From the NCBI GenBank assembly GCA_038087875.1, contig CM075993.1, positions 3,226,001-3,290,000 on the forward strand: a DNA stretch of 64,000 nucleotides. The letters are read 5' to 3'. A program made the position numbers and the translations under genes. Shown here piece after piece: positions 26,604-63,074 of this stretch. The first letter of the stretch is position 1. Every line of letters starts with the position of its first letter. The notes under the pieces were generated by a model, which saw nothing but the letters and a program-made list of their open reading frames with translations, was not told the DNA's origin and did no database searches. The DNA is from Malacoraja senta (Eukaryota).

Positions 26604-26725
26604 CTATAAATGAAAGAAAAGGAATAAAGACATAATGGGTAAAACAAACTAAATGTTATTAAAACCAGCACTTCCCCTGTTGACTTCTTTGGGTCTTTTA
26701 CTTGAATTTGCTCAATTGTGAGTTA

Positions 26726-28730: not shown

Positions 28731-28821
28731 CTTTTAGTTCCAGACTTGGGCTGGTGTAAGACTGGACCTCCAGCCATTGCTTTCTTCTTGAGAACCCTCT
28801 TGGCCAATTCTCGATGCTTCT
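28731..28821 (-). CDS. FAM219B: FAM219B exon 3 (QKHRELAKRVLKKKAMAGGPVLHQPKSGTKR)
   Basis: Similar to FAM219B KHRDLAKAVLRRKGM; ttttgcag / gttagt; 91 nt, phase 1 to 2. Confidence 0.9.
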
Positions 28822-35411: not shown

Positions 35412-35511
35412 GTAATTTGAGATGTATTGATGATGTTCTGGTGCTGGTCGGCAGTTTCTTCTTCTCATTCATCTTGAAGGCAGTCTCATTCTTCCAGCTT
35501 TTGGTGTAGCC
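35412..35511 (-). CDS. FAM219B: FAM219B exon 2 (GYTKSWKNETAFKMNEKKKLPTSTRTSSIHLKL)
   Basis: Pyrimidine-rich acceptor ...gtttcaag and gtgagt donor; 100 nt, phase 0 to 1; splicing to exon 3 gives the FAM219 motif IHLKLQKHRELA. Confidence 0.8.
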
Positions 35512-41562: not shown

Positions 41563-41625
41563 CGAGGGCCCGGGTTGCTGCGGCAACGCGACGTCCACCG
41601 GCCGCTGAAGCTCCGCCGCCTCCAT
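41563..41625 (-). CDS. FAM219B: FAM219B exon 1 (MEAAELQRPVDVALPQQPGPS)
   Basis: gcgATGG Kozak-like start in a CpG island; gtaatg donor; 63 nt, phase 0, fits exon 2; the poorly conserved N-terminus is assigned by position and phase. Confidence 0.7.
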
Positions 41626-41639
41626 CGCATCACATCGCC

Positions 41640-42280
41640 CCGCGCTCGGCACTTCCGGTCAGCTGACCGCGGCAGCGGCTCCGCCCCTTGGTGACGTGAA
41701 ATAGACCCCGCCCCTGGTGACGTAAAATAGAGACCCCGCCCCCTAGTGACGTGTCATATAGACCCCGCCCCCGTGTGACGTAAATAGAGACCCCTCCTCC
41801 TAGTGACGTAACCTAAAGACCCCGCCCCATGATGAGGTTAACTGGAGACCCCGCCCCCCTGGTGACGTAAAATAGAGACCTCGCCCCCTAGTGAGGTATC
41901 CTATAGACCCCGCCCCCTGGTGACGTAAAAGAGACTCCGCCCCTGGCGACGTGAACTAGAGACCCAGCCCCCTGGAGACGTAAAATAGAGACCCCGCCCC
42001 CTGGTGACGTATGATGGACACAACGACCGCCCTCCCAGAAACGTCATTATGTCCCCGCCCTTCATGACGCGTGATGGAATCCCCGCCCCTCGGTGACGTT
42101 TACATGAAATCCCGCCCTTCTGTGATGTGTACGTGAAACCACGCCCCTCTCTGTGACGTGTCTTACAGTCCCCGCCCCCCCCCGGTGATGTATACATGTC
42201 CCCGCCCCCCGATGACGTCGCGGAGCTCGGCCCCCGCCCCGTTGACGTGTATTGGAGACCCCGCCCCTCTGTGACGACCC
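41640..42280 (-). promoter_or_regulatory. FAM219B promoter: ETS-type site (CACTTCCGG 41650) plus tandem array of ~21 GC-box/CRE-like units (~29 bp)
   Basis: Repeating gaCCCCGCCCC-N3-5-gTGACGT unit starting ~55 bp upstream of the ATG; CpG-rich. Confidence 0.75.
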
Positions 42281-45200
42281 ACGCATTCCCCCCCCCTCCC
42301 GGGTCCTAGCGCCCACCCTCCGGCTCAGCATCAGCTCAGCTCCCCCGGGTCCTAGCGCCCACCCTCTCTCTACACCCAACTCTCTCATCTCCTCCACCCT
42401 CTGGAGAGAAGATACAGGAGCTGAAAACCTCATATGTCCTCTACGGGTGTCAGAGGTCATGGGGAGGTGGCAGGAGAATGGGACTAGAAGGGAGTAATAG
42501 ATCAGCCGTGACTGAATGGCGGAATAGACCTGATGGGCCGAATGGCCTAATTCTGCTCCTATCCCTTACGAACATGATTTAAGAACAGCTTCTTCCCCAC
42601 TGCTATCAGACTCCTGAACCCATCACACCTTTCACATCGATGATAGACACAAAATGCTGGAGTAACTGTCTGAAGTGATTGATCTTCAGAAGGGTCTCGA
42701 CCAGAGATGCTGCCTGTCCTGCTGAGTTACTCCAGCATTGTGTGTCTATGTTGAATGAGAATTTGTTTCTTTCTGCCATCTAGTGCCCAGTTGAAGAACA
42801 GCGTCAGCAGAATCACTCAACATGGACAAAGACCCTTCGGCCCCACTGAGTTTGTGTCAACCATCAAACGTCCATTTACATTAACCCATGTTTACACCAA
42901 CTCTATGTTCTACTCTGTCCATATTCTCCTCCACGCCCCCAATATTTATCACACGCCCCCTCATGCAACAGACAAGATTTGTTATATTTCATTATCTCAT
43001 CGTTTCATTAAGAATGTTTTTTATTGTATATGACCCAAAATTCTCACTTGCAGCAGCACAACAGATATGTAGACAAAGTACTGTGTAAACACTATCATAA
43101 GCAACATAAAGAAGTTCACTATATCAAAAAACAATCAATAATAGTGGAAAGACAAAAGCAATGCCCCTGAAATCTAAGGTAGACAAAAATGCTGGAGAAA
43201 CTCAGCGGGTGAGGCAGCATTTATGGAGCGAAGGAAATCCTCACCCAAATCCTCATCCTCATCCAGCATTTTTGTCTACCTTCGATTTTCCAGCATCTGC
43301 AGTTCTTTCTTAAACAACCCCTCAAATCTATGTAGTTCAGAGTTTATTTGAGGTTGTGGTGTTTAATAGCCTGATGGCTGTAAGGAAGAAGCTGTTCCTG
43401 AACCTGGACGTTACAGTTTTCAGGCTCCTGTACCTTCTTCCTGATGGCAGGGGTGAAGTGAGAGCGTGGTCAGGGTGGTGTGGGTCTCTGATGATGCTGG
43501 CTGCCTTTTTGGCTCCTGTAGACTCCTGCAGATCCCTTCGATGGTGGGGAGGTCAGTACCCATGGACTGGGCAGTGTTCATCGCCTTTTGCAAGTCTTCT
43601 TCGTATGAAGTCGGACATCGGCACAATGAACGGCAGATGCTGGAGCCTTGAGCAAGAAACATAAAGTGCCGGAGTAACTTAGCAGTTCAGGCAGCACCAC
43701 TGGAGAACATGGATAGGCGACGATTCGGGTCTGGATCCTTATTCGGAGATGCTACCTGACCATCTGGGCTACTCCAGCACTTGTGTTTTTCCCTCCACTA
43801 AGGATGGGACCCAACCTAAAACGTCATATGCCCTTTCCCTCCACAGATGCTGCCTGGCCCGCTGAGTTTATCCAGCAGCTTTTTTTAATCACGATTCCAC
43901 ATCTGCGGTTTCTTGCATTTTCCGCAGTAATACACCGAAGTTTAGACACACCATTTGTCATGTTTTGTTTTGCTTTGAAGTAAATATGGTGAAATAAGTT
44001 GCAGTCCCACTCATCTGTTCTCATTCAGTAATCCCAGAGTGACTCACTATATTGGCTGGGACATTCAACAGAGTTAAAAAGTAATTTTGGAAATTCCCTG
44101 CCATTTTTCACATTAAGCACACAGACTGACTCTGTATCCTAACCACTGGACAACCAAATCCAACCTTGTCACCTCCCTACCTCCGTCTCCTCCTTTAGGT
44201 GCAGTGTCATGGACTCATACAATGTGGAAACAGGCCCTTTGGTCCAACTTGTCCCATCTCTACACTAATCCCACCTGCCCGCGTTTGGCCCAAATCCCTC
44301 TAAACCTGTCCTATCCATGCACCACTGCCATTGGGAAGGAGGTACAGGAGCCTGAAACCTGTAATGTTCTGGTTCAGGGACAGCTTCTTCCTTACAGCCA
44401 TCAGGCGATTAAACACTACAACCTCATATAAGCTCTGAGCTACATAGACTATTATTGTTATAATTAATATTATTGCACTATTATTTGTTTTTTGAGTATG
44501 TGTGTATATGTATGTGTGTATATATATGTATGTATATTAAGAATCAAGAGTTTATTGTCATGTGTCCCTGATAGGACAATGAAATTCTTGCTTTGCTTCA
44601 GCACAACAGAACATAGTAGGAATTGACTACAAAACAGATCAGTGTGTCCATATACCATTATATACGTAAATACACACATGAATAAATAAACGGATAAAGT
44701 GCAAATAACAGATAATGGACTATTAATGTTCAGAGTTTTGTCCGAGCCAAGTTTAATAGCCTGATAGCTGTGGGGAAGCAGCTATTCCTGAACCTGGTCG
44801 TTGCAGTCTTCAGGCTCAAATATATATGTGTACTTGTGAGAATGTGTTTATTTACACACACTGAACTTTTTTTCTCTCTCTCATTTATTATATTGTTTAT
44901 AGTGTACTATGCCTACATATTCTGTTGTGCTGCTGCAAGTAAGAATTTCATTGTTCTATCTGGGACACAGGGCAATAAAACACTCGTGAATCTCATCCTG
45001 TCCAATTATTTCTCAAATGTTGCAATAGTCCCGGCCTCAACTACCTCCTCTGGCAGCTCGTTCCAAACACTCATTACCCTTTATGTGAAAAATTTACTCC
45101 TCGGGTTTTTATTAAATATTTCCCCCTCAATCTTAAACCTTGAGTCCTCTGGTCCTCGATTGCCCTACTCAGGGCAAGAGACTCCGTGCGTCTACCCGAT

Positions 45201-46747
45201 CTATTCCTCTCATGGTTTTGTACACCTCAATAAGATCACCCCTCGCCCTCCTGCGCTCCAAGTCCTAAACTGCTCAACCCTCGTCCTCCACCTTTGCATG
45301 GGCACAGAAGACTCACCAACAACAAAACATGAATTATCAGTTCCTCTACGCAATCAAGACAGTGATAATGCAAAAAAAGAAGTATGGTAAATGTCCAAAG
45401 AGGAATTGTGCCGCTGTAACACGAAGCAGAACTCAAGTTGTATCATGAGAACAGCAACAATTTTCCACATTCTTGTGGTTACTGTAACTTGGATGAACCT
45501 TATGTTGCAATTGATCAATTCGCTCAAGGCATGCATTTAAACTTTAGACACAAAAAGTTGGAGTAAGTCAGCAGGTCAGACAGCATAGTCATACAGCATG
45601 GAAACAGGCCCTTCGGCCCAACTTCCCCACACCGGCCAACATATCCCAGCTACACTAGTTCCACCTGCCCGCGTTTGATTCATATCCCTCCAAACCTGTC
45701 CTATCCATGTACCTGTTTCTTAAATGTTGGGATAGTCCCAGCCTCAACTACCTCCTCTGGCAGCTTGTTCCATACACCCACCACCCTTTGTGTGAAAGTT
45801 ACCCCTCAGATTCCTATTCAATCTTTTCCCCTTCACCTTAAACCTATGTCCTCTTGATCCTCGATTCACCTACACTAGGCAAGAGACAGCCTACTCAACC
45901 GCTCCCTATAGCTCAAACCTTCTAGTCCTGGCAACATCCTCGTAAATCTTTTCTGCAGCCTTTCCAGCTTGACAACATCTTTCCTATAACCTGGTGCCCG
46001 GAACTGAACACAATACTCTAAATGTGGCCTCACCAACGTCTTATACAACTGCAACATGGCCTCCCATCAACTCTGGAGAAAAGGAATAGGTGATGATTCA
46101 GGTCAAGTCGACCCAAAAATCACCTACTCCTTTTCTCCAGAGATACTGTCTGACCGGCTGAGTCACTCCACCTTTTTGTATCTATCATTGTGTAATATAA
46201 TTGCTTAATATTGCTTTCTTAAATATTATTCCTTAAATGTAAAGACGTGCATTATCAAGATATTGAAATTATATTTATTTATCAATTTTTTTCTGATTTG
46301 ATGAAGTTATTTGAATTCCTTCAAACTACGTGATGAAGCAAAATCTCGATTGCCACACACACCATCCTGGAGCCATTTGCGATTTTCCGTAGTTATTTTT
46401 TAAACACTCCCTGGACAACATTAATTGTTCAGTTCTGTCAGATCTCAGAAAATGATCTAAATGAAAACCAGGTGGTTGTCAGCACCTGTCTCACTCATGG
46501 CAAACTAAAAAGCCTTTTACCTAATTTAATGGACATTCTCAAATCCTTGCATGACTTTGCCACTCCCTAACTGTCATCCGATCCTGTTACAACACTTTGT
46601 AAGCTGTGCAGCAGATCGTTGACCACATTAGCGACGCAGTGGTGCTGGTTTCCGACGGGAACGGTGACGGAAGCACCACACATCTCTGTCCTCCAGTTCC
46701 TGCGGACTTCCGCCGCTGGAAGTCTAGGATGTTGGTGTGTGTGTGTG

Positions 46748-47012
46748 CTTTATCATCATTCCTTACAATGCCGTGTATGACAGTGATCGCAACTTCTACT
46801 GAAGTGTGTGGATGGCCGTTGGCTCGCTAGGAGCTCATCCGCCCTTTGACGGGTTTCGTTTTTGGTCCTGCTGGGGGTCCACAGCCCCCTCCTCACCTGG
46901 CAAACTAGGTGGGGGAGACGGTTTAGTCGCCGACTATCCTACCATGGAGCAGGTAGCACGGGATTACATGGTACCCGTGGCGGGGGGAACTCCCCCCGAC
47001 CTGACCTGGTCG
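46748..47012 (-). mobile_element. Putative short RTE-like non-autonomous element
   Basis: GC-rich structured block ending in ACACGGCATTGTAAGGAATGATGAT on the minus strand; single copy here, so family assignment is by resemblance only. Confidence 0.3.
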
Positions 47013-47614
47013 GGTATGAGTGCCAAACATTGCCAGAGCCAAAGATCTAAAATTCCCTTCTACAGCAGCTTTTTACTTCTGTTTTTCTCCTCTACCATGT
47101 TTGGATTTACAATCCACTTGCTTTGAACCATATGCCCTGCTATACTTCTTCTCATTTGATTCAGTGTCAAATTAGTCCTAATTTCACCATAGAACAGTAC
47201 AGCACAGAAACGGGCCCTTCGGCCCACAATGTCTGTGCTGTACATGATGCCTAATCTTCTCTGCCTGCACGTGATCCATATTCTTCCATTTCCTGCATAT
47301 CTAAAAGCCTCTTAAACGCCACTATCGTTTCTGCCTACACCATTACCCTTGGCAAGCACGTTCCAGGCACCCACCACTACATGTATATAGAACAACGAAC
47401 ATAGTACAGCACACAGGAACAGGTTTGCACTTACAATCCACCTGCTTTGAACCATGTTGCCCTGATATCCCCTGCTATAAGCTATTCCTAATTTCAATTT
47501 CAATTTATATTTTCACCAATTGAATTATTTTTTTAATTGAAAAAGATTACTCATGATGCCAGACCCACTGAGAATTTCCATCCCTTTGTACATTAATTCC
47601 TTATTTAAACCCAT

Positions 47615-48028
47615 CATCAGCTCTGACCTCCCTACCATCGAGGGGATCTATCGCAGTCGCTGCCTCAAAAAGGCTGGCAGTATCATCAAGGACCCACACC
47701 ATCCTGGCCACACACTCATCTCCCCGCTGCCTTCAGGTAGAAGGTACAGGAGCCTGAAGACTGCAACGTCCAGGTTCAGGAATAGCCGCTTCCCCACAGC
47801 CATCAGGCTATTAAACTCAACTCAAACAAAACTCAGAACATTAATAGCCATTATCTGTTTATTTATACTTTATCTGTTTATTTATTCATGTGTGTATATA
47901 TTTATATAATGGTATATGGACACACTGATCTGTTCTGTATTCATGCCTACTATATTCTGTTGCAAGAAAGCAAGAATTTCATTGTCCTATCTGGGACACA
48001 TGACAATAAACTCTCTTGAATCTTGAAT
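47615..48028 (+). mobile_element. Rex1/Babar-like LINE 3' end
   Basis: LPTIEGIYRSRCLKKAGSIIKDPHHPGHTLISPLPSGRRYRSL..RFRNS.FPTAIRLLN plus AATAAA and (CTTGAAT)n tail. Confidence 0.75.
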
Positions 48029-49006
48029 TGTTCAAATTGGTCTTTCATCTCTTGGTTATTTGTGGGGGTGCAGTGGAAAATGAATTGCAGAACACCAAAA
48101 GCAATTCATTACATGTCTCCATTGGGTGACTTTATGCTCTCAACCTGCTGTCTCAGTAATACCACTGTTGGAAAGCAAGTAACTTGCTTGCACTGATATT
48201 TGGCCTTGGCTTGTGTTACAACCATTGCATCAGGAGAAAATTCAACAGGAGTTCTTTAAAACACCCATGTATTACGCGGCTAAAATTGTGTGCATGTACC
48301 TTGATTGTCCCTGACTCTTAATGTATAAGAAGGAACTGCAGATGCTGATGTACACCAAAAATAGACACAAAATGCTGGAGTAACTCAGCGAGTCAGGCTG
48401 CATCTCTGGAGAAAAAAATAGGTGACGTTTCGTGTCGAGACTCTTCAGTGTCGGATGAAGGTTCTCGACCCGAAACGTCACCCGTTCCTTTCCGCCAGAG
48501 ATGCTGACTGACCGGCTGAGTTACTCCAGCATTTTGTGTCTCTTATTCAAGCAAAACCGATCAAATGCAAGACAACACTCCGGCAGCACCCTGCCTATTA
48601 TTTCAGCGCGTGAAAAAGATAATTTCACACCTTCCAAGAAAAAAAGCAGGGAAAAAAATTGCCAGTGCATTTAATCTGCAGATCACAATAAGAGGAAATA
48701 CATTAGACAGATGCAGTCTATGAACAGCGCAAAGGAAACCACAGAGAATCTGTTATGATGAAATACCACTTACTTATTAATTTTAAATGAGTATCTTTTC
48801 AGCCAACCGTCATCAATTTTTTAGCTTGTTATCTCTGAAGAGACTCCATTTTTTATAGGTCAATGTGGAAGCAGAGCAAAAATGGGACATTAAAACAGCT
48901 CTTCAGACCCAGCATTCATTGAATCATCTACGTTCCCTCATGTGATTCAGCATAAACAGGAAGGCTTTGGTGATAACTCACGTCCTGCAGTTTTTGTGAA
49001 GAGTAA

Positions 49007-49360
49007 AGGGCCTGTCCCACTTTCACGACTTAATTCATGACCTTTTTTATTCGTGGACATTTTTCATCGAGCTAGAAAAAAACCCCGACCTACTTGATGC
49101 CACGAGTACCTACGACTAGCATCACGGGTCTAAAGGGTTCCGGCCCGAAACGTTGCCTATTTCCTTCGCTCTATAGATGCTGCTGCCCCCGCTGAGTTTC
49201 TCCAGCACTTTTGTCTACCTTCGATTTTCCAGCATCTGCAGTTCCTTCTTAAACACCAGCATCACGGCCTGCTACGACCTACCTACGACCTCGTGACGAC
49301 CATGCTGCGAGTATGAGTCAAGGGCAAAATGGCAGAGGTCGTGAAAGTGGGACAGGCCCT
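49007..49360. mobile_element. PIF/Harbinger-like MITE subfamily A with nested PLE fragment (49128-49257)
   Basis: Same TIR and interior as 865-1094; TAA TSD; nested insertion flanked by AGCATCACGG (49118-49127, 49258-49267). Confidence 0.88.
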
Positions 49361-50694
49361 TAACAGCAAAGATCTATGAAAAAGCAATGAACCCACACGT
49401 CGCGGTGTTGTGAACGTGGAGGTTCAAAACTCGCTGGCCACCAGCTGAAGTTCAGAATTACATGGGTTTTGCTGGACTGCAAGTGAATTTCAAATGTGGT
49501 TTCAAATGCAGGTTTGTGCTGCAGCTATTATTTTGCAACTCAAGCTTGACGTTCTTTGTGGTGTTTGTTGATTGAGGCATTAGGATGTTGTTGTTCACAT
49601 TACGAGGGTTTCACCAATTTACAGGAAGCAGGCAATGGCCATCTATAAAGTACTTTGGTAGTGTGGTCGTTGTAGAGATATGGATAAGTGTATTGTGCCT
49701 GTCTCTCTCTCTCCTCTCTCACACACAGACATATTCTGGCTCAACACACAAACTTCATCCTCCCTCTATCTTGATCATTTGTCTCCATATGTCAAAGGGC
49801 GGCACAGTAGTAGAGTTGCTGCCTTACAGCACCAGAGACCCGGGTTCGATCCTGACGATGGGTGCTGTCTTTACGGAGTTTGCACATTCTTCCTGCGACC
49901 TCGTGGGTTTTCTCCAGGCGCTCCAGATTCCTGCCACTGTTGCTCGTTACCCCAGAAGGAAGCAGCCCCCCCACTCCACACTCCATCCCAGGAATGACGC
50001 CACCCAAAGCCTACAGCCTAGCCCAGAAAACTAACTGCTCAATACTACACAATGACCGTACGTCCTCAGATTCTTCTCAAAATAGTGTGAGCAAGCTACC
50101 CAAATGGCCTCACGGAGAAACAGCATCTGACAACTATCACAGCCGTTAAAGACAGCATTGGTACGAACATTGACAAGTTGAAGCTGCCGCCACCTGGAAT
50201 TACTAGTGCTTTTGGCAGCCCAGACTTTGACAGGGAATGATTGTGCATGCATTATCATTGGGTTCATGATCAGCACGTGCTCCATCGATGTAGAAGGTTC
50301 AACCAGTCCCGGCCCAGGGTCCGATCACTCGGCACGGGGGAGCTGAGATCCCACCCCGGGCGATGCGGGAGCTTGATCGCCTCGACGCGGAGGGCCCAAA
50401 TGCCGCCGGCTGCGACCGTCAAGATCGTCCCGTCAACGGAAGACTCGAGGCCCCCCAACCGCTGGCACACAAAGAAGGGAAGAGATTGAACTTTTTTTTC
50501 TCTGTCCATCACAGTGAGGAATGTGGAGGAGTCACTGTGGTGGATGTTTATGCTAAAATGTACTTGGTGTGTTTTGTTGCTTTTTATTGGTATGACTATG
50601 GCAAATGAAATTCCTCGTATGTTGCAAAACATACTAGGCTAATAAAGTAATTATGATTACGATGATATAAATCTGTTCAAACAGCAGGTATCAA

Positions 50695-50836
50695 TGTATC
50701 AGGCCACTGTTTATTGAACTGAGTTCATAGGGAAACAGAATACATACAACAGAACAGAATTAAATGTTCGATAGTAATATTTCACACTGTATCTTGTATC
50801 ATGTACAATCACATCAAATGAAGGTCTGGAAACCGT
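50695..50836 (-). other. COX5A: Candidate non-coding terminal (3'UTR) exon of COX5A
   Basis: Polypyrimidine acceptor cttttctcttccag ending at 50837; AATAAA on the minus strand at 50715-50710; unique AT-rich sequence. Alternative candidates exist near 52130-52520. Confidence 0.4.
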
Positions 50837-51667
50837 CTGGAAGAGAAAAGATGTTGAATAATGTCAGGCAAATTCCTTTTGATCTCATTCAAACTGAACA
50901 AAGTTGCCAATAAATATAGGAAATCAGGCAATAGAAAACATCAAGGATATTATGTGCATGAAGGAACTGCAGACGCTGGTTTAAACCGAAGATAGACACA
51001 AAAAGCTGGAGTAACTCAGTGGGACAAGCAGCATCTCTGGAGAAGGGTCTCGACCCGAGACGTCGCCCATTCCATCTCACCAGAGATGCTGCCTGTCTCT
51101 GCTGAGTTACATGTAAAAGTGCTACATTTAAGCACATAATTTTGTTTGCAGGAAAAAGGAACTGCAGATGCTGGAATCTTGAGCAAAAGACAAAGTGCAG
51201 GAGGAATTCAGCACGTCAGGCAGCACCTGTGAGGGAGTGGATGGGCGAAGTTTCCATTTGCGACCCTTAGTCAGTCATACAGCGTGAAAACAGGCCCTTC
51301 GGCCCAACTAGCACACGCTCTTCAGACTCATTTCTTCCAAGGCCCGAACCGAAATCTCACATCGATTCCCTCCACAGATGCTGCCTAATGCCAAGTTACT
51401 CAAACACTGTGTGTTTTACTTAAGTTGTTCAGAACCAGATTCGATCTTGTAACAGCAGTAATAAAGGCAACCAGCATTTTATTTTTACAAGCTGCCCTGA
51501 CAAATCTAGACATGATGACATTTTCAGTCCCACCTACAGATCTGCCGTCAGCTGAAATGGCTGCACCTCAAAGATCCAGGCACAAAAAAATGATGCAACA
51601 ACAATAAGTGCCGGTTGCGTGGGTCATACAAGCCTGGTTATTAAATGTCAGTAATCTTAGGTTGGGA

Positions 51668-51954
51668 GGGCACGGTGGCGCAGCCATAGAGTTGCTGCCT
51701 TACAGCGCTGGAGACAATGGTTCTATCCTGACTGTCTGTACGGAGTTTGTACGTTCTCCCCGTGGGTTTATCTCTGAGATCTTCAGTTTCCTCCCACACT
51801 CCAAAGACATACAGGTATGTAGGTATACTGGCTTGGCATAAGTGTAAATTGTCCCTACTATGTAGGATAGTGTTAACGTGCGGTGATCGCTGGTTGGTGC
51901 GGACTCGGTGGGTCGAAGGGCCTGTTTCCGCGGTGTATCTCTAAACTAAACTAA
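51668..51954 (+). mobile_element. tRNA-derived V-SINE (HE1-like)
   Basis: GGCACGGTGGCGCAG head to (CTAAA)n tail. Confidence 0.85.
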
Positions 51955-52833
51955 GAGGTTGGCATTTTTGAATGATCACAGGCGCAGAAAAGCAATCTAA
52001 AATTGGTTGAAGATAGATGCAATGCATCAAGGTACGTCAAGCAATCACTTTCCATTCAGTGCAAGGGTTGAATCACAAAATCCAACAATGTATTGGCTCA
52101 AGAAGCATCCAATATCAAATTATTACTTTGCTTTATTGAAAAGTAGTAATGTTGCTTGATTCTGAAATGTTTCACCGACAAAGCAATATTTTAGACCGAG
52201 TCATTTGCAACAAAAACCATTAATTACATGAAGATGTCAAATGACGCAATGGTCTAGAAAGGTGGAGTAGGTATCATTTTTATTGAGGCGACAGTATCTT
52301 TAAAAATCTAAACGCTAGTGGAATAAATGAGAAATCTATACCAAAGTCAACATGTTTTTTCAGAGCCATTTCATTAAAAACAGAAGGCAATTGATGAAGG
52401 CAATTGATGAAATTTCCAACTCATTAATAAATTTATCACCTTCTCTAGATTAACCTATTACAAGTGAAGAATGGCGACTCAGTCAGCACACCCATGGATC
52501 ATTTTTAATGAAGCCTTGAAATTTTCTACTACAAAAGTCAACAAGTAAGAACAAAGCGAACTGCTCGTGCAACTCGATAGACACAAAATGCTGGAGTAAC
52601 TCAGCGGGACAGGCAGCATCTCTGGAGAGAAGGATTGGGTGACGTTTTGGGTGGAGACCCTTCTTCAGACACTTCTCGACCCGAAACGTCACCCATTCTT
52701 TCTCTCTAGAGATGCTGCCTGTCCCGCTGAGTTACTCCAGCATTTTGTGTCTGTCTTCGGTTTAAACCAGCATCTGCAGTCTCTTCCTACACACTGCTAG
52801 TGTAACTCAATGGGTCAGGCAGCACAGTGGACG

Positions 52834-53860
52834 CAAAGGGATGGTTGTCAATTCAAGACCAGGAAACATTGACTATCCCTCTGCCTCATGTGCTGAGTGC
52901 CTCCAGCAGTTTGGGGTTTTTTGCTCCAGATTCCAGCATGTGCAGTTTCTTGCACCTCCAAGACTTTAAGAGTGTCTGAATGCATTAAAGATAAAGCTCT
53001 TAAATGCATTAAAGCTCTTAAAGATAGCAGAGTCACTCAAGGGATATTTATGAGAAGGCAGGAACGGGGTACTGAATGTGGATGATCAGCCATAATCACA
53101 GTGAATGGCACTGTTGGCTCGAAGGGCCGAATGGGCTACTCCTGCACCGATAGTCTATCAGGAAGAATCCAAAGTCCAGGATCATTCCAGCTTTGTGCAC
53201 ATGGGGATATAGATTCTATTAATAGGAAATTTCTGAAGGCTAACAGACCATAATATGGGATCAAGTTAAACTCCTTAAATCAATTGAAAATAATTTAAGA
53301 GTTTAACAGAAGGTACACAAAAGTGCTGGAGAAACTCAGCGGGTGCAGCAGCATCTATGGAGGGAAGGAGATAGCAACGTTTCGGGCCGAAACCCTTCTT
53401 CAGACTTTCAATTGATTTAAGGAGTTTAACTTGATCCCATATTATGGTCTGTTAGCCTTCAGAAATTTCCTATTAATAGAATCTATATCCCCATGTGCAC
53501 AAAGCTGGAATGATCCCGGTCTTTGGATTCTTCCTGATAGACTATAGGTGCAGGAGTAGGCCATTCGGCCCTTCGAGCCAGCAGTGCCATTCACTGTGAT
53601 CATGGCTGATCATCCCCAATCAGTACCCCGTTCCTGCCTTCTCATAAATATCCCCTGGGTGACTCTGCTATCTTTAAGAGCTTTAATGCATTTAAGAGCT
53701 TTATCATTAATGCATTCAGACACTCTTGAAGTCTTGGAGGTGCAAGAAACTGCACATGATGGGAATCTGGAGCCAAAAAAACAAACTGCTGGAGGCACTC
53801 AGCACATGAGGCAGAGGGATAGTCAATGTTCCTGGTCTTGAATTGACAACCATCCCTTTG
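52834..53860. repeat. Long inverted repeat: arms 52834-53289 and 53406-53860, ~116-bp spacer containing a PLE fragment
   Basis: Arms read as reverse complements with scattered mismatches; the ORF track shows near-identical peptides on opposite strands (52848/53584, 52897/53610). Confidence 0.95.
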
Positions 53861-54214
53861 TTTAACATATCTTTTAGTTCAATATTTCCACAGCTAATGA
53901 TTCAGATTTCACTTTCTGTAGATGACTGTGTATGATTGTGGCTTAGTGTGAATTATTGTCTGATAACACTCATGCACCACCTTGGGACATGTTATTACAT
54001 TAAGGCCACCATTAAGGCCACCGTATTTGTTATTATAAAGTAGACTCCAACTATTTTTTTTGGTGGCCAATCCAGTACATTATTTTATTCTTACACATGA
54101 TTTTATTACTTAAAAATACAAATTTGAAATTTTGCATATCTCCGCACAACATTAAATTGGTTGAATTATACAAATATTTAATCAGTGCTATTCTAAACTC
54201 ACCAAAGTATAATA

Positions 54215-54328
54215 TTATAATTTGTCTAGACCTATCTCCTCTGGGGTAGGAATTCCGAGTTCAGTTAGCGTGGGCCGGAGTTCTCGAATAACGTACGGAT
54301 AGATCTCTTTGTGAGGCCCGGCTTTATC
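54215..54328 (-). CDS. COX5A: COX5A exon 4 coding part ([37 protein letters not shown])
   Basis: Matches the COX5A C-terminus; ttttgcag acceptor; TAA at 54217-54215; a GTGAG donor 12 nt after the stop (exon end 54203) implies a separate non-coding last exon. Confidence 0.97.
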
Positions 54329-55718
54329 CTGCAAAAGTTGAGAGGAGTCAACATTAATTCAGCCATATAATGCAATAAACCTGACCACAGCAAAACTCCA
54401 ATAATCTGGCGTACAAATATCCAGCATATGGCACCCTCCTGCAATCTGAAAATGCGAGCAGGGGTAGGTGGCCTGAACGGAGGTAGCAAACACTGGCGGG
54501 GGTGGAGTCAGGAAACACTGGTTGGATTTGTGGCCTGTTCTAGGGTATGAAGTTCTTGCATGTTTCAGATCGCTTTGACAAGTTGAAACATACACGCTGA
54601 AACTTAACAGGTTCCGCTTCCTGCTGCTGTTTAAACTCCCTTCAAACTCAGGGGGTTTTACAGATTTTGTTTCTCTTATATTACTGTGCAACGTTTTAAG
54701 TGAAAAGATTACACTGGGGATGTGCCAAATTATTGGAGAATGACTGCATCGCTCAGGCACCAGCATTTGCATGGTTATATTATGGACTAAAAGAGCTGGC
54801 TTATTCCGATACAAGTAAACAGCTTATTTCAACTTAAAGCAGCAATTCACCAGCGCCAACACTGAAGCTACCTTTTATTCTAAATTCACTTTGGCATTAA
54901 AGGCACTCCCTTCTGTTTTCGCCCTTCGTGGAAAAAAATGTATATGTTGAAATCCAAACGGGTGCCTTTGTTTTCTGCGAGAATATCATTAATAGTTTGA
55001 TCTAAGGATATGCCAATTCTGGGGAAGGCCATATTCCCAATTCTAAGGGGTATTAAGAATCAATTGCATAGCGTAAGACTGCAGGCAACGGCACCACAGG
55101 GAGCAGTGTCAGTGGTGCGTAGATTATTCATTGTTTGCTTGCAAGGTGCACAGTGGAAATGCAGGGAATAGTCGGGTCACATCTGAGGGAAGAAAAACAG
55201 AGTTAAAAGGTCTCCAATGAGGTAGACGGTAGGTCAGGACTGCTCTCTAGTTGGTGATGGGATGGGTCAGTTGCCTGTAATAGCTGGAAAGAAATTGCCC
55301 TTGAATCTGGAGGTATGTGGCTTCACACTTCAGTACCTCTTGCTTCAGGCTTCAGACAACAAGCCTCGTCAGTTCAGCAACAGAAGTAGGTAAATGAAGA
55401 CATGAAGTGCAGCATAGCCAGGATGGAAAATGGGCTAACAGTAAAGTATCACAGACTTTCAGTATTTGCAGCACTTAGCAACTTGCAAGAGGTTACATGT
55501 TTAAAGCATCTGAGCAATAAATAGGATATCTGCATTGCAGATTCAAACAGGATGCAGCAACCAAAATTGCCTCCATTTTATAGCTCTGCAAAAAATAATA
55601 CTACACTATTCTCATGTGCAAACTTAATATCTCACCCAGATATCAACATACTACAATCTTTTACCTTCATGATTACAAAACAAGTAACTGAAGGTAAAGC
55701 AGTTTCAATTCCACTGAC

Positions 55719-55840
55719 CTTGACTGCTTCGAGGATACGGATTGCACTAGCTAGATCATTTAATCTACGGCATGCTCTCAGGGCTGCATCAATAATGTTG
55801 GGTTCAGGAACCAGATCGTATCCAATGAGGGTGTTCATTC
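55719..55840 (-). CDS. COX5A: COX5A exon 3 ([41 protein letters not shown])
   Basis: Hallmark COX5A peptide; ttttactttcag acceptor, gtcagt donor; 122 nt, phase 1 to 0. Confidence 0.97.
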
Positions 55841-57808
55841 CTGAAAGTAAAATAGACATTCACTGCAGCAAAATCAGCAGAGGTTTTTCTTAAAACGACA
55901 ATTTTCAAAGAAATATCAAGCATTTAATGCAATGCAAGTGCACAATAGAATAGAAGGGACAGGGATCAGATTTGGGAAATTTAAATTGTGTGCTGCAAGG
56001 ACCAAGAATCCACATATGTCAAAGGCAGACACAAAATGCTGGAGTAACTCAGCGGGATGGGCAGCATCTCTGGAGACGTTTCGGACGAGACCCTTTTTCA
56101 GCGAGTCACTCCAGCATTTTGTGTCTACCTTCGTTTTAAACCAACATCTGCGTTCTTTCCTACACCAACATATGTCAGTCCCAGCTCAGACTGGCACAGA
56201 AGCGGAACTTGATTCAGGGTTAAATTGAAAAATTCCCAAATGGAACGCTGATCATTTTGTATTTCTTGCAGTTTACAGAAACAACTCCACGTTGAACCCT
56301 TTAACCCCCCCCCCCCCCACCACCAATTAACGGCCACCTATATCCCTCCTTCTGGCTCACATTTTACTCCTTCTCTCTCCTTATCTGACACCCTTTTCAT
56401 CTCTGTCCTTTGCCCACCTATCTGCCAATCCAAACACCTTCACTGTAGATGGACACAAAGTGTTGGAGTAACTCAACGGGTCTGGCAGCATCTCTGGAGA
56501 AAAAGAATGGGTGACGTTTCGGGTCGGGACCCTTCTTCGGATGGAACATCCCATACCCTTTTTCTCCCAGTGATGTTGCCTAACCGGTTGAGTTCCTTCA
56601 GCGCTTTGTGTCTACGTTTGGTTTCCACGAGCATCTGCTGTTCCTTTCTACACCCCTTCACTTGTATCCGCCTATCAGGTTCCAGCCCTTGCCCTGCCAT
56701 CACCTCCTTTCCAGCAACCTTTGCCCTACTATAATCAGGACCCCAACCTAAATGTCGCCGATCCATGTCCTCCAGAGATGTTGCCTGTCCCACAAGTTAC
56801 TCTGGGACTTTGTGCTAACTGTCCCCGCATTGAAAATAGTTACACAGCAGAATACAAACTGCATTTAGCGCCAACAGTTATCAATCCAAATTGGCTTGGA
56901 GCAGCAGTGTATGTCACACACCATACAGCCAAATCCAGTCTACTGGAGATAGACACAAAAAGCTGGAGTAACTCAGTGGGCCAGACAGCATCTCTGGAGA
57001 AAACAAATAGGTGAAGTTTCAGGACAATTCCCTTCTTCAGACCGAGTCATTCAGACTGCAGTTCCTCACTACGGATGTTCTTGCTCCAAAAGTCTCCAAC
57101 AAGAACTCAACCCCAACCAAGTGACCCTCTCACATTCTTAACGGATACAGGTGAACCTATGTCATCTACAAAATACACTTGCCACAAACCCACATGGTTG
57201 CTAATTCACACATCTCACTCAAAATAGCACATGAACAGACACTCACGTGGGCAAAAGCTCTGCCACACATTCACCTTGTTCCCACCCCGGCCAAATGTCT
57301 TGTTCGTTCCCACTGCAGGCAGTACCCAAATGACAGCTTCAGACAAACCACAATTACGGGAAAACAAACAGACTTCAGGAGAAAATTTGGAAGAAAAATG
57401 AATGGAGGTAAAATTCTCCTTTCACCTCCACAGGATCATAATGCACAAATGAACTGATCACCTGCTTTCAATGGGGCTTGTGAGGGGACGGGGATATTAA
57501 TTCACAACTTCACAAGTAAGAGGAGTAGAATTAAGCCATTCTGCCCATCGATTCTACTCCACCATTCAATCATGGCTCATCTCTGTCTCCTAATTTTCTG
57601 CCTTCACCCCATAACCCATGACAAAATTCAGATTTTTAATGTAAAAATAAATTTGTCATGATTCACATTACAATTCTTCTTCCAACTTTATTCAAACTGT
57701 AGTAAGGAAAGCTTGATTTTTGGACAATAGACATGGTCTATGAGGTTGAAACGTTCTCCGAGGGGCAGTGACATCAACAGGGCTATCCCAACAGATTTTT
57801 CTTTTTAC

Positions 57809-57926
57809 CTTTTCGGGAGCTCCCAGGCGTCGATGTCAGGCTTGTTGAAGTACGTCACCCAGCGGGCATCAAACTCCTCATCCGTCTCCTGCTTCCCATG
57901 TGAATACCATCGTGCAGCAAGGGCAG
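57809..57926 (-). CDS. COX5A: COX5A exon 2 ([37 protein letters not shown]..), with one extra base near the 3' end
   Basis: Translation matches the COX5A mature N-terminus; tttgacag acceptor and gtaaaa donor; 118 nt where 117 is needed for phase 1 to phase 1. Confidence 0.95.
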
Positions 57927-60900
57927 CTGTCAAAGAAATGCATGCTTCAAGCCCCACTGCAAAATCCTACTTTCAGCAACCAATATTTTCAATGGCGTAC
58001 TGCTCCACATACACTTGCTGCAGTTCTTTCATTTCATTAAATAATCATCTTACAGATAATTAAACAGATGGGACACCTAGTGACTGCCACCATTAATTAA
58101 TCCCATGCATTATTGTAATTTCCTCTTGCGGACATCTAGACCAAGGTCACAATTTATTTCCAGTCTCCAACGTGCAAAGCTGAGAATTCATCCAACTATA
58201 ACACAAGGCTGCTGTAATTTTATTTGTGAAATATTTTTAAGAACAGATGAGCACATTTTCCAGAGTATTAACAAGGAATTGAATTATCATAATTATCATT
58301 AACCCGTCTTGTGCAAAGAGAAAATCAAGCAAAGAGAAAATCAAGCCATGAACAAGACAGATGACCAAGAAGATTACAGTTTGTATCAGTTGCCAAACAG
58401 TTCCAAACTCAACAAATCAATCTCAGTTGAAGACTTCAAGATGTTAAAATGCAGATCATGATCAAAGATATTTCAGTGAAGGTTTACCATGTTCATTGTC
58501 CCATCCATATGACATATGACAATAAAACACTCTTGACGTCTGGACTGTAGAATTCTAAATTGCTCAATGGCAATTAAACAAGGTGACAGTAAACCAGAAA
58601 CATTTCAATACGTTGGCAAAATAAAAACCCTAACCTGATTTGGGGAGAGTGAGGAAAAAAAAAGATTACAACTGATTCAAATCAGAAACAACCTGTTTCC
58701 GATGTCCAGTTCCTCGCATGTTTCAAAAAGACTTCCAAATAACCTGGCCCCTGACAATTTTTGGTAGATTTTCTGGGGTGGAGGGGCACCCATGAAATAA
58801 AAGCAATATTATGCCAGATTTGAATTGTGTTCAGTAAACGAACCTTCAATGTTGGGAACAGGCACCTAATCCACAATTCTTCTCGACACTTAAAACAAAA
58901 GATTGCCTGTAGGTGTGACTTTTGAAATTAATCCGGAAAGCAAGAGATTAATCTCTTTTGGAACGCAATGCTGGATCAGCAACAATAAATCTTGCCCAAT
59001 TTATTACAATGCTCATTTTGAAATATAAGGAAACGTTAATTATTAAGAGCCAAGCCCAAGCAGTTTCCCCAGAACCGAAACAAAATAAACCCTCAACTTC
59101 CTTAAAATGCTTCAAATGAACAGTTTAAGGGCTCACCACCAATGCTCAGCATCTTAACAAATTCAAAGACCAAAAAGGGGTGAAATGCTTCATCAACCAA
59201 TATTTTCCAAACATTTGGGAGCAATCTTGATAAACATATTTAGAAAAATAATAGCTGATATTTCACTATTCAACGAGGCCTTTTTAAAAATTGCCATTTA
59301 TATGAATACTGGCAAATGCAAAACTCTACTTGAAGTTCCCAGAGAGCTTGAAGAACAGCCACTATACTTCACAGAATTTTACATCAGATTTCACATGGCC
59401 TCTGTGTTTCAATCTTCCCTTTGACACCTGACATTGATTATACAACATGGCCTGGAGACTTAATAAAGAAAATGCCAAGCACAAGCAACAACTCCAGTTG
59501 CAACCCAAGGCCTCAGAGAGGTACTGCTGTTTTTTACCTGTCCAGTACGCCAAGACATTTCGGGAATAATAGCTGTTCCAAGCAGCTCATGTATCCCACG
59601 CCTGGATACAGACCGATTCAATTAGCTTTCCAAAGTAAGGCATTAATATATTTACAACTGGACATGCTGAATTAATTTAACTATTCATTAACTGAAGTTC
59701 AGTCATTTCCTATTCACGCTAGTTTAACAAAGCACGGATGCCAACACAGTAATAAACCAAAAAAATATATTCGGGCATCCTCTCTATTTCAGAGACAGGT
59801 TCTTCATGGCACTGCAAAAAATAAAGAAATGTATCCTCTGAAATGTGTGAGTTGACTCATAAGGTGCTCATTCAGACCCACAGACTATTGAGCCTTCTAA
59901 GCCTGCTTTGCAATTTGATAAGATCATTGTTAATCTGATTGTAACCTCAACACAGTGTTATCTTCTAACTACAATAACCTTTCACCCAATAATCCACACC
60001 CACCTTAAAAATATTCAAGGACAGTTTCCACTGCCTCGTGTGAAAGTTTAAAATAATGCACGACCTTCAAAAACGTTAATCTATCCCAAAACAATCCTCA
60101 CTTCAAGAGTGTCCCCCAAACAGGAAACAATCAAATCAATATACCATATGGGACGTGCGTTTTAGATTCCATAAAAGTAGGAGTCTTTTTGACAATTTGA
60201 ATAGTGCTGCAGCATTGGTGGAAATGCCTTCAGGCCAGAAGTAAAAGACGACCTTGAAATATCCTTCCACAAATGCGGTGTTAATTTCGGCGTTTGCAGA
60301 CGGAGGTGGTGACAATTTGGAAATTCTAATGAAAACTAAAAGAGAATAATCTTCAAATCCCAATACATTAGTCAAGCACATCAGTCATTTCCCCAAAATA
60401 CACGGGCCTCTGTCGGGCGTGCCTTAAGTATGCAAACGCTGCATTCTGGCTAACGATTAAGACAGCATTTCATGGTTTCTCGGATTTCTAGTTTGCATCG
60501 TTCTTAAACCACCACAATCACCCAAGGGTCATTAAAGATGTACACAAGGTGACAGCAATACAGGGAATGGTGGAAGAGGGAGATGTGGACAAAGGAGGAT
60601 GCAAGGGGGGGGGGGTGGAAGATTCAATCCAATTATATCTGGGGTAAGATGGAACGGTATTCAGAAAGCCGGTGAATGAAGTCTGCAGGGACACAGGGAA
60701 GGTGAACGTAATGAGTGGAAGGTGACTGCAAGGAGAAAGGAAAAAGATAATGTACTACTACTACCAGCGGGGGGGGGGGGGGGGGTTTAACAGTGGGTGG
60801 GGCAGCTAACATTGGCTGGGCTGAAGATATCCACAAAAGAAGTGTTAAAGAAAGGAACTGCAGATGCTGGAAAATCGAAGGTACACAAAAATGCTGGAGA

Positions 60901-61691
60901 AACTCAGCGGGTGCAGCAGCATCTATGGAGCGAAGGAAATAGGTAACGTTCGGGCCGAAACCCCTTCTTCAGAAGTGTCAGCAGTGTGGCTAACGATTAA
61001 GACAGCATTTCATGGTTTCTCGGATTTCTAGTTTGCATCGTTCTTAAAGGAGGAGGTGGATCGGAGGGTTGGGTGGATAGGATACGGACAAGGGAGGGGG
61101 GGGTAGGGAGAACTGTCAGCTGTGCAGTGAGTTCAGGGGGGGGGGGGGGAGTGACCAAAGATGCTATAGGATCTTTGGGAGTGACTGTAGGATGATAGTA
61201 GGAGGGTGTGGGGTTGAGGGAGAAGTAGGGTGGAAGGTTTGGAGGGAGGTGGTGATAGAATTCAGCTGTGCAGTTGGATTGTGGGGGGGGGGGGGGGTGA
61301 CTACAAGGTGAGGAAGGTAGGGAGGAGTTGAGGGAGGGGGTGAAGGGGTGAGGCTAGCGGTGAGGAGGTAACGGATTGAAGGGGGGGGGGTGAAGGGGAG
61401 GGGTGGGGACCGCAGGGCGAGGTCGGAGGGAGGGGTGAGGGAGGTGATCACCGCAAGGTGAGGGTAGGGGTGAGGGTGAGGGGGTGAGGGCGAGGGCTAC
61501 AGCCAGTGGAGGCCGGCGTGTGGACCCGAGGTCTCCCCGCCCACAGGCCCGAGGGCCTACCTCTCCTGCCGCCGGGTCATTACAAGGACACGGGCCGGTG
61601 CGGCTGCAGCGGGCAGGGGGGGAGCTCGGGAGAGCCCGGGGCTGGGCTGGGGACTGATGCCGCCTCACACACACACACTCCCCCCCAGTGC

Positions 61692-61701
61692 CCGCCATTT
61701 T
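61692..61701. promoter_or_regulatory. YY1-like motif CCGCCATTTT at the start of COX5A intron 1
   Basis: Match to the CCGCCATNTT consensus ~40 nt into intron 1; the related CCGCCATT lies at the FAM219B exon 1 donor (41553-41560). Confidence 0.45.
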
Positions 61702-61741
61702 AGGGGGTCGCCTGTCACCGCCGCCTCATGCTGTCTCTCAC

Positions 61742-61862
61742 CCGCCGGCTGGGCCCGGGCCTGGGCTGATGGTGTCCCCCCTCTGGCCGCCGCCCTCCTC
61801 CAAGCGGCCAGGCCGCCTCTGCTGCTGCTGCTGCTGCTGCACCTCAGCGCCGCTCGGAACAT
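61742..61862 (-). CDS. COX5A: COX5A exon 1 (mitochondrial targeting peptide MFRAALRCSSSSSSRGGLAAWRRAAARGG...QPA)
   Basis: ATG at 61862 in a CpG-rich region; Arg/Ala/Ser-rich presequence without acidic residues; GTGAG donor after 61742; 121 nt, phase 1, compatible with exon 2. Confidence 0.88.
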
Positions 61863-61964
61863 GGCTGCTCGCCGGCTGCTCCCCGCTCCTCACGTGGCGA
61901 TCGCCACCGCCGCTGCCTGGCTGAGAGGAGAGAGAGAGAGAGAGAGAGTGCGCCCGCCTCCTGC

Positions 61965-62900
61965 ACCGGAATTACGTCACCCGCCCCGCACTAGATGTCA
62001 CTTCTTACCCTCTCCCCTTCCCTCCCGCCCCGCACTGACGTCACCCGACAACCACCTCCGGATGTCACTTCCTCCCTTTCCGTCACCCGCCCCGCACTGA
62101 CGTCACCCGACAACCACCTCCGGATGTCACTTCCCTCCCTTTCCGTCACCCGCCCCGCACTGACGTCACCCGACAACCACCTCCTGATGTCACTTCCCGC
62201 CCTTTCCCTCTCCCGCCCCGCACTGACGTCACCCGACCACCTCCCCCTGATGTCACTTCCCTCCCTTTCCCTCTCCCGCCCCGCACTGACGTCACCGACC
62301 ACCTCCCCCTGATGTCACTTCCCGCCCTTTCCCTCTCCCGCCCCGCACTGACGTCATCGCTCCCGCCGGCAGGATGTCATTTCCGCCCCCTTCCCCTCTC
62401 CCGCCCCGCACTGACGTCATCAGCCAACCTCCTCCTGATGTCTGAAGAAGGGTTTCGGCCCGAAACGTTGCCTATTTCCTTCGCTCCATAGATGCTGCTG
62501 CTGCACCCGCTGAGTTTCTCCAGCATTTTTGTCTACCTTCCTCCTGATGTCACTTCCCTCCCTTTCCCTCACCCGCCCCGCACTGACGTCTTCCGACAAC
62601 CTCCCCCCATGATGTCACTTCCCTCCCCCCGCCCCGCACTGACGTCATCCACCCGCCGGCAAGGACGTCACTTCCGCCCCCTTCCCCTCTCCCGCCCCGC
62701 ACTGACGTCAGCCCTCCCCTTCCCGCCGGCAAGGTTGTCACTTCCGCCCCCTGTCCCTCTCCCGCCCCGCACTGACGTCAACCCTCCCCCTCCCCTGACA
62801 CGGACGTCATTTCCGCCCCTCTGTCTCTCTCCCCACACACACACACACGTTGGCAACCGAAGACACTTCCGCCCCTCTCTCAAGCCCCCGCTTCCGGCAC
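61965..62900 (-). promoter_or_regulatory. COX5A promoter: tandem array of ~11-12 units (~62-63 bp), each with GC-box, palindromic CRE and ETS-core motif
   Basis: Unit CCCGCCCCGCACTGACGTCA...GATGTCACTTCC; TGACGTCA at 62036, 62098, 62161, 62224, 62287, 62349, 62412, 62640, 62703, 62773. Confidence 0.78.
62441..62538 (+). mobile_element. PLE-derived fragment inserted in the COX5A promoter array
   Basis: TCTGAAGAAGGGTTTCGGCCCGAAACGTTG...GTCTACC flanked by duplicated CCTCCTGATGTC. Confidence 0.85.
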
Positions 62901-63074
62901 CTCCCTCCCCACAGATGCTGCCCGACCCGCTGAGTTACTGCAGCCATCTTGTTCTGTTACCACAGTGAGTGAGCTGGATTATCCATCCGTACGTGTGTTT
63001 GCCACAAAAAAACCTTCAGCTTTAACACTGTGAGATGTGAGTAAACAGCCTGAGATAATATGAGGAGAATAACC

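Follow-up and report, generated by a model that had tools for sequence, protein, structure and literature searches.

Two adjacent genes in a 64,000-nucleotide stretch of DNA from the skate Malacoraja senta (hereafter the window), FAM219B and COX5A, are each preceded by a tandem array of short units that pair a GC box with a CRE. The two arrays are of independent origin, the array of COX5A consists of local copies, and the motifs are retained in both. We propose, with a probability of roughly 0.6, that the arrays would represent independently grown, motif-retaining upstream activating regions of TATA-less CpG-island promoters. The analysis concerns two loci, in adjacent genes, in a window chosen for showing the pattern, and positions are anchored on ATGs and first donors, not on transcription starts. 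The features are:

22516-22758, 25223-25277, 26526-26603, 28731-28821 and 35412-35511, minus strand: later exons of FAM219B
41320..41480, minus strand: low-complexity start of FAM219B intron 1, sense strand G-rich (plus-strand skew -0.39)
41563..41625, minus strand: first coding exon of FAM219B (63 nt, phase 0)
41650..41658, minus strand: canonical ETS site CCGGAAGTG, between array 1 and the FAM219B ATG
41680..42290, unstranded: array 1, 21 units of about 29 bp as delimited by hand, each a GC box, 2-5 bp and a half or variant CRE
54215-54328, 55719-55840, 57809-57926 and 61742-61862, minus strand: coding exons of COX5A (Pfam PF02284)
61050..61480, plus strand: low-complexity DNA in COX5A intron 1, G-rich (sense C-rich), skew +0.77
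61692..61702, minus strand: full YY1-type motif, about 40 bp into COX5A intron 1
61923..61977, minus strand: pyrimidine (TC)n tract and non-canonical ETS/half-CRE, between array 2 and the COX5A ATG
61978..62830, unstranded: array 2, 11 units of 56-70 bp (mode 63) and one fused proximal unit
62443..62538, unstranded: short, SINE-like, high-copy retro-element fragment, inserted in module B of the seventh unit of array 2

The FAM219B exons join in frame into an open frame of 209 codons, and the later exons match Pfam PF15260; the gene is presumably the B member, judging from human synteny with COX5A. Among the 101 of 167 ORFs tested in the non-repeated DNA at 1-23 kb (at least 38 aa), the Pfam match was to a FAM219 exon only, and with some of the ORFs of 23-54 kb scanned as well, this is consistent with an earlier statement, from a first-pass annotation of the sequence, that the window holds only two gene starts. 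For COX5A, the exon-1 leader scored best, among the matches listed, with a protein of the skate Rhinoraja longicauda (P0049). Its exon 2 measures 118 nt (3n+1), which leads to a +1 frameshift and a stop at codon 92, and two changes affect nearly invariant residues (K in 118/120 matches; R in 0/120). The gene may therefore be a decaying copy. The frameshift falls in a C run and may be a sequencing indel.

TRF identified a repeat of period 29 at 41681-42011 (11.6 copies, score 366) and one of period 63 at 62022-62442 (6.7 copies, score 600), in agreement with the periods annotated before. Among the 49 TRF rows of the whole window these are the only two with a period of at least 20 and at least 4 copies, the top score outside both promoter arrays being 125. 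The head-to-tail units fall within a size of 10-100 bp, and the arrays occupy a proximal-promoter position relative to the ATGs, at a distance of 56 bp (array 1, FAM219B) and 116 bp (array 2, COX5A). Composites of the form CCGCCCC-N2..6-TGACGT occur 21 times in the window, 10 in array 1 and 11 in array 2, compared to none in 100 dinucleotide shuffles of the window and at most one when the GC-rich islands were shuffled by themselves (2000 shuffles each). All 21 are on the plus strand, confirming that both genes have upstream arrays that pair a GC box and a CRE in one orientation. Similarly, all 24 occurrences of CCCGCCCC in the window lie inside the arrays, and a motif scan found no third array copy in the window. 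One 12-mer is common to both arrays. After masking of the motifs, the best local score between the arrays was 18, slightly below the mean of the shuffles (19.1), and 163 of 200 shuffles reached or exceeded it, so that the spacers are indeed unrelated, as had been claimed.

Each unit of array 2 consists of a module A and a module B, and the linkers form two subfamilies. Module A has 20 bp, i.e. a GC box, GCAC and a full CRE, and is identical in 10 of the 11 units, while module B is an overlapping ETS/CRE-like site. The 4-bp spacer of module A is invariant, and we know of no motif that fully explains this fixed spacing. Only 2 substitution events were counted in the 25 motif columns versus 37 in the 38 other columns (binomial p~1e-6), on the basis of one alignment and one unit tree, with C-rich linkers that are prone to misalignment and mutation. 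The true motif mask gave the single lowest value among 63 rotations, and the difference also appeared in the linker subfamilies separately (1 in 25 vs 14 in 38, p 0.006; 2 in 25 vs 20 in 38, p 0.002).

In array 1 the proximal 12 units are homogeneous, and the distal 9 have diverged and have mainly the motifs in common. The GC-box core (CCGCCC or CACGCCC) is kept in 18 of the 21 units and TGACG in 14. The half-CRE columns have 13 events in 6 columns versus 95 in the 22 others (p 0.009), with 3 of 28 mask rotations equally low; the motif retention thus resembles that in array 2, but is weaker. The full site TGACGTCA is absent from array 1 versus 10 palindromic sites in array 2, so that the description of both arrays as carrying a CRE applies in full to array 2, and in array 1 mostly to half-CREs.

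The FAM219B-side island (801 bp, GC 0.64, CpG o/e 0.96) is covered by the array over 610 bp, and the COX5A-side island (1411 bp, GC 0.67, CpG o/e 0.79) over about 740 bp. The CpG o/e ratio is 0.92 in array 1 and 1.05-1.16 in array 2, against 0.54 for the window. CpG islands are commonly defined by GC > 50%, CpG o/e > 0.6 and a length > 200 bp. No TATA box was found at either promoter, the three TATAAAAR matches of the window being located elsewhere; judged by these sequence features, both putative promoters belong to the TATA-less CpG-island class. SINE copies in the window, used as a control for CpG decay, were uninformative (CpG 9.6% vs non-CpG 8.1% divergence). Hairpin formation was considered and rejected, as array pieces fold no better than shuffles (z -0.8 and -1.1). 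A common rule of helical phasing was rejected as well, since 63 bp corresponds to 6.0 turns but 29 bp to 2.8. G-quadruplex patterns lie over array 2 and distally in array 1, yet also in many other places.

Further elements had been listed as common to both genes, and these agree less well; for the intron skew and the COX5A ETS site, the common grammar is weaker than stated. Low-complexity DNA with G/C skew does occur in intron 1 of both genes, but with opposite sign. An ETS core near the start is canonical at FAM219B (equalled in 52/2000 shuffles), but non-canonical at COX5A, with no strict ETS site in 61640-61977. The full YY1-type motif AANATGGCG is found only at COX5A (0/2000 shuffles), and FAM219B has the bare 7-mer core in its first donor (41553-41559), which was equalled in 126/2000 shuffles. 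From its sequence, 61923..61977 is the probable initiation zone of COX5A. Its (TC)n tract could alternatively be a splice acceptor. SP, ETS, CREB, YY1 and the 5' splice site form the standard vertebrate promoter motif set (bioRxiv 10.1101/2023.06.27.546584).

The retro-element fragment in array 2 is flanked by a 13-bp target-site duplication (62430-62442 / 62539-62551), has 68 BLAST pieces across the window, and reaches a summed contig depth in the millions in all four runs. In contrast, the contig depth over the array 2 bins is 0-35 (contigs were aligned to array 2 only), indicating that array 2 does not belong to a dispersed repeat. Three other organisms (B, D and G) have contigs that align to 10, 8 and 4 of the 11 array 2 bins, at a depth of 2-29, and the intron-1 contig of organism B differs from the window in 15 of 227 letters, with 16 gap letters in addition. 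Array 2 is therefore probably older than the split from organism B, its contigs being putative orthologues. One low-depth difference in organism B is located in an array 2 GC box. Run X1, a possible source sample, was excluded as independent evidence; in runs X1, X2, X6 and X12, 3, 1, 3 and 7 of the 11 array 2 bins were without cover, from which no inference was drawn. Among the runs listed for the sequence there was none of RNA, which is uninformative on expression. As to variation in copy number between individuals or species, array 2 is not bridged by any single contig, and SINE reads dominated the table of joints.

We propose that a short piece with an Sp/KLF GC box and a CRE would have duplicated locally in tandem, separately at each gene, the COX5A piece additionally holding the overlapping ETS/CRE site. 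The GC-box-to-CRE order and the 3-4 bp spacing would then reflect a pre-existing favoured pair that was amplified twice, rather than a shared ancestry of the arrays. Sp/KLF, CREB/ATF and ETS proteins are predicted to occupy many copies simultaneously; the occupied copies may keep the island unmethylated amid methylated, transposon-rich surroundings, and initiation would be driven within the 50-120 bp that separate array and ATG. The genome of one cartilaginous fish is hypermethylated save at the starts of expressed genes (PMC5437953). New copies may originate in the germline through breakage and duplication of bound, open sites, and copies whose motifs are damaged may be lost through selection, or since only bound copies continue duplicating. 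The convergent tandem amplification that the first-pass annotation had suggested is supported at these two promoters by the lack of homology beyond the motifs, the undispersed array 2, and motifs that are kept while linkers drift. Against the proposal stand the toleration of the retro-element insertion in array 2 and the unit lengths without common helical phasing.

Alternatively, only one or two proximal units would matter, and the rest would accumulate by germline duplication of bound or recombining promoter DNA without benefit, block-wise conversion keeping the 20-mer uniform. We consider this unlikely, although several observations favour it. Such a bias is known in human spermatogonia (PMC8559717), the insertion in array 2 was tolerated, and the invariance of the 4-bp non-motif spacer suggests that the 20-mer may be block-copied by conversion. 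Motifs are moreover uniform upstream of COX5A, and if this is a decaying copy, strong selection on its promoter fits poorly. The elephant shark PRDM9 is apparently partial and not rapidly evolving, and could steer recombination to promoters (PMC5519329); information on PRDM9 in skates was found neither there nor in PMC8892340, as far as these were covered. However, retention is position-specific, in each of the linker subfamilies as well as among old diverged units, which needs a filter that reads the motif, and the human insertions are shorter than the array units.

Quite improbable, in our judgement, is a local coincidence on a minisatellite-prone, GC-rich, high-recombination small chromosome, where CpG islands hold such motifs anyway and the window would be uninformative on the genome. 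In its favour, the two genes are neighbours and come from a window chosen for showing the pattern, 10-20% of human promoters have tandem repeats (PMC3840602), and skate microchromosomes, on one of which the window might lie, are GC-rich (PMC10115646). Yet the remaining ~62 kb contain no other long minisatellite, the human figure mostly reflects repeats of 1-9 bp, and motif pair, order and spacing are identical in both arrays. The latter agreement, and the shared 12-mer, could also point to one dispersed GC-box/CRE-carrying repeat or transposon co-opted at both genes, and an unrelated metagenome contig (L001) has similar short tandem modules; the absence of similarity beyond the motifs and of a third copy in the window, and the low depth of array 2, make this very improbable. 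A transposon-derived promoter would be expected to show inter-locus homology and dispersed copies; the former was not found, nor, for array 2, the latter. An assembly artefact, to which the possible indel in COX5A exon 2 and small indel differences in run X1 might point, is hardly credible in view of the structured differences between units (subfamilies, an age gradient, an insertion with target-site duplication) and the contigs of other organisms that align to array 2.

Each array is a natural replicate experiment, in which 11-21 sister copies reveal the bases that a promoter keeps; in the present case these are the bases of a 20-bp composite of GC box and CRE whose spacer is fixed. If limited to a few loci, the pattern would exemplify a known process with unusual clarity. 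More speculatively, and we are inclined to doubt it, a large share of skate housekeeping promoters, and perhaps those of cartilaginous fishes, might be, instead of unique sequence, locus-specific factor-site minisatellites that renew themselves and defend against methylation. Bound copies would then preferentially duplicate via breaks directed to promoters, which a weakened PRDM9 might favour, the arrays would defend short CpG islands from methylation in a retro-element-crowded genome, and repeat masking would have concealed such promoters from genome papers. Such a genome-wide pattern would imply a vertebrate lineage with promoters evolving by repeat turnover, could serve to test if homotypic clusters of sites are adaptive or a by-product of mutation, and would mean that the main regulatory content of shark and skate promoters escapes any analysis of repeat-masked sequence.

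In the literature searched, largely open-access main texts, minisatellites of motifs were not found described for promoters of cartilaginous fish. Neither of the two little-skate genome papers uses the words 'tandem' or 'satellite' in its main text, and a manta preprint names tandem repeats merely as a repeat class. A metagenome scan for the double composite with periods of 25-55 yielded four loci (three bacterial-looking by composition and context, the fourth being L001), none from cartilaginous fish, of which the collection may contain none. A scan of viral contigs yielded 25 loci, 24 with a single composite, and no arrays.

Among known systems, the SV40 21-bp GC-box repeats, the CMV CRE repeats and the HTLV-1 21-bp repeats likewise form strong constitutive control regions from repeated GC-box or CRE units, but these are viral, with few copies or dispersed units, and the likeness is one of description. 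The promoter VNTRs of TYMS and HRAS1 are also minisatellites of factor sites, but they are polymorphisms of a single locus, next to a promoter that is otherwise unique sequence. The overlap in module B of array 2 resembles in geometry that of the ETS-CRE motif to which GABPa and CREB bind (PMC3464117); GGAAGTGAC[AG]T has 8 matches in the window, all in array 2, and the 11-mer CGGAAGTGACG is exact in 1 of 11 units, with variants in the rest, most units having lost one or both CpGs. Human MORC3-restricted tandem repeats with large motif clusters, SP/KLF and ETS among them, similarly carry factor sites in their units (PMC13373173), but are mostly repressed, latent enhancers, whereas the skate arrays abut the starts of two housekeeping-type genes. 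Duplication of bound sites as a mutational route has already been described (PMC8559717, PMC3188502); what is new is the sparing of motif columns relative to linkers in array 2. In Drosophila regulatory modules local duplication is likewise a source of neighbouring sites, but the duplicates diverge, often to other factors (PMC3188502), while in skate the motifs are fixed and the linkers diverge. Finally, germline tandem duplication at bound sites builds motif clusters in human (Kaiser et al. 2021, PMC8559717), and the skate arrays are alike in tandem copying at regulatory DNA and in homotypic clusters without common descent between loci. The human events are single insertions of 5-20 bp, for which CTCF, NRF1 and PRDM9 are named, with no CREB/ATF in the main text; the skate arrays, in contrast, consist of 29-63 bp multi-factor units in 11-21 copies that make up most of the island.

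Pfam matches to exons identified two genes in the window, FAM219 and COX5A, both on the minus strand. No third gene was found among 101 ORFs tested in the 1-23 kb section of the window, in keeping with the first-pass annotation, which had counted only two gene starts. The six FAM219 exons join in an open frame of 209 codons with its ATG at 41625; from human synteny with COX5A we take the gene to be FAM219B. Two additional ATGs lie directly upstream of this start (41626-41640, minus strand), one followed by an immediate stop and the other out of frame. Among 120 COX5A matches, the exon-1 leader scored highest against the skate Rhinoraja longicauda, followed by sawfish and stingray; all three proteins begin at the equivalent Met, identifying the ATG at 61862 as the orthologous COX5A start and marking the organism as skate-like.

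The COX5A copy in the window may be mis-assembled or decaying. One extra base in a C run of exon 2 (57809-57926, minus strand, 118 nt) produces a frameshift and a stop at codon 92, exon 3 encodes N where 118 of the 120 matches carry K, exon 4 encodes R where none does, and the leader contains an expanded Ser run (CTG repeat, 61819-61840). One of the two residue changes recurs in a protein from a collection contig (P0001) that crosses the exon 3-4 junction, so this change may be real.

Upstream of both starts lie the only tandem repeats, two of the 49 rows of the scan, with a period of at least 20 and at least four copies:

41680-42290, array 1, starting 56 bp upstream of the FAM219B ATG: 21 units, near 29 bp in length, whose CREs are half-sites
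61978-62830, array 2, starting 116 bp upstream of the COX5A ATG: 11 units, mostly 63 bp, each with a module A and a module B, in two linker subfamilies
seventh unit of array 2: short retro-element fragment flanked by a 13-bp target-site duplication

The arrays make up most of one CpG island and about half of the other. All 21 GC-box+CRE composites (CCGCCCC, N2..6, TGACGT) of the window fall inside them in a single orientation, as had been claimed for both starts, compared with none in the shuffled window and at most one in shuffles of the GC-rich islands alone. The pattern is real and locally well supported. In array 1 the proximal 12 units are alike, while the distal nine have little in common except the motifs. 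Module A consists of a GC box, GCAC and a full CRE, and module B of an overlapping ETS/CRE-like site. Apart from the ETS-CRE overlap, the motif names are consensus labels that we presume to apply. The overlap label follows passages of PMC3464117. The 63-bp unit can be split into parts of about 27 and 36 bp, both of which end in a CRE-like site, and TRF also reports periods of 27 and 30; an older unit of about 30 bp may have been built up into this higher-order repeat.

The arrays appear to have arisen independently. The proposal that their spacers are unrelated was borne out: aligned with motifs masked, they scored 18 against a shuffle mean of 19.1, and 163 of 200 shuffles scored at least as high. 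A shared transposon as the source of both is very improbable. Contigs of four sequencing runs were aligned at 80% likeness to 61300-63200, covering array 2 only; their summed depth, which is not a copy number, was 0-35 over the array and millions over the inserted retro-element, a difference of five to six orders of magnitude, which excludes a dispersed high-copy repeat as the array-2 unit. A further high-copy repeat starts some 250 bp past the array (63080-63200; depth 1e5-1e6), so the COX5A island is tightly hemmed in by repeats. In three other organisms with aligning contigs (B, D and G), 10, 8 and 4 of the 11 array-2 bins were covered, and the intron-1 contig of organism B shows 15 mismatches to the window over 227 letters, with 16 further letters in gaps. 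Array 2 is thus probably older than the split from organism B, and the array contigs are putative orthologues. An assembly artefact is the least credible explanation of all.

Position-by-position retention of motifs among sister units adds evidence beyond the original observation. On a tree of the 11 array-2 units, two substitution events fell in the 25 columns fixed in advance as GC box, CRE or ETS, against 37 in the 38 others (p about 1e-6), which include C-rich linkers prone to misalignment; the true motif mask was the single lowest of 63 rotations. The contrast persists inside each linker subfamily (p 0.006 and 0.002), and module A is the same in 10 of 11 units, with every CpG kept. In array 1 the 6 half-CRE columns took 13 events and the 22 others took 95 (p 0.009; 3 of 28 rotations reached so low a value). 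Of its 21 units, 18 have retained a GC or GT box. Such retention suggests that something reads the motif in every copy. A CpG-decay control failed, and one low-depth difference in organism B falls within a GC box.

We consider it reasonably probable (about 0.6) that each array serves as the activating region of a TATA-less CpG-island promoter. Their position, content, independence and motif retention have been established directly, and we infer factor binding, methylation state, start sites and a benefit of the arrays. The many predicted Sp/KLF, CREB/ATF and ETS sites would hold the island open and unmethylated, with initiation immediately downstream. Sp/CREB/ETS-type sites belong to the ordinary vertebrate promoter vocabulary (part of bioRxiv 10.1101/2023.06.27.546584), and a cartilaginous fish genome is described as hypermethylated apart from the starts of expressed genes (passages of PMC5437953).

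The main rival, in which duplication at bound germline sites yields the surplus copies as a by-product, is rather unlikely. Such duplication has been shown in humans (passages of PMC8559717), and PRDM9 looks partial in elephant shark (part of PMC5519329), which could concentrate breaks on promoters; nothing on skate PRDM9 was found in the literature passages checked. The GCAC spacer (62033-62036 and equivalents) is invariant in all 11 array-2 units and accounted for by no known motif; it may reflect a factor or pair reading the whole 20-mer, or block-wise conversion could explain it. Local coincidence is quite unlikely.

Other features claimed as shared are weaker than stated. Intron-1 G/C skew is present at both genes but with opposite signs, the ETS core is canonical at FAM219B but non-canonical at COX5A, and a full YY1 motif near the first donor occurs at COX5A but not at FAM219B. 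A third skewed low-complexity tract, mid-intron at 31520-31700, has no motif array beside it; tracts of this kind are therefore not confined to gene starts.

A genome-wide motif-array promoter architecture, as envisaged earlier, is doubtful: arrays at two of two promoters are suggestive, but these are neighbouring genes in a window picked for the pattern. Composite scans of metagenome and viral-contig collections revealed no cartilaginous-fish locus. In a metagenome contig unrelated to the window (L001, 2380-2555, near the contig end), an AlkB-like 2OG-Fe oxygenase ORF (PF13532) is preceded by two short tandem runs, one of 2-3 GC-box+CRE units and one of 2-3 ETS+YY1-type units; the contig, which shares the motif vocabulary, may come from an animal virus or a mobile element. 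One FAM219B intron holds a MITE-like CpG-rich element (26725-27212; o/e 1.7; inverted ends of 74 bp) that bears the sole full CRE outside array 2 and is the densest CpG spot of the window.

Site clusters formed by local duplication are known in humans (PMC8559717, which also cites Gotea 2010 on homotypic clusters) and flies (PMC3188502). Human tandem repeats carrying SP/KLF and ETS clusters exist (part of PMC13373173), and promoter tandem repeats, mostly microsatellites, are common in human and chicken (passages of PMC3840602, PMC4617956 and PMC4203960). No description of motif minisatellites at cartilaginous-fish promoters emerged from literature searches, or from term look-ups in two genome papers on skates and one preprint on the manta, within mostly open-access main texts. 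Whereas human bound-site insertions measure 5-20 bp, the present arrays have 21 units of about 29 bp and 11 of mostly 63 bp. The process, local site duplication, is known; its form at these cartilaginous-fish promoters is a new variant.
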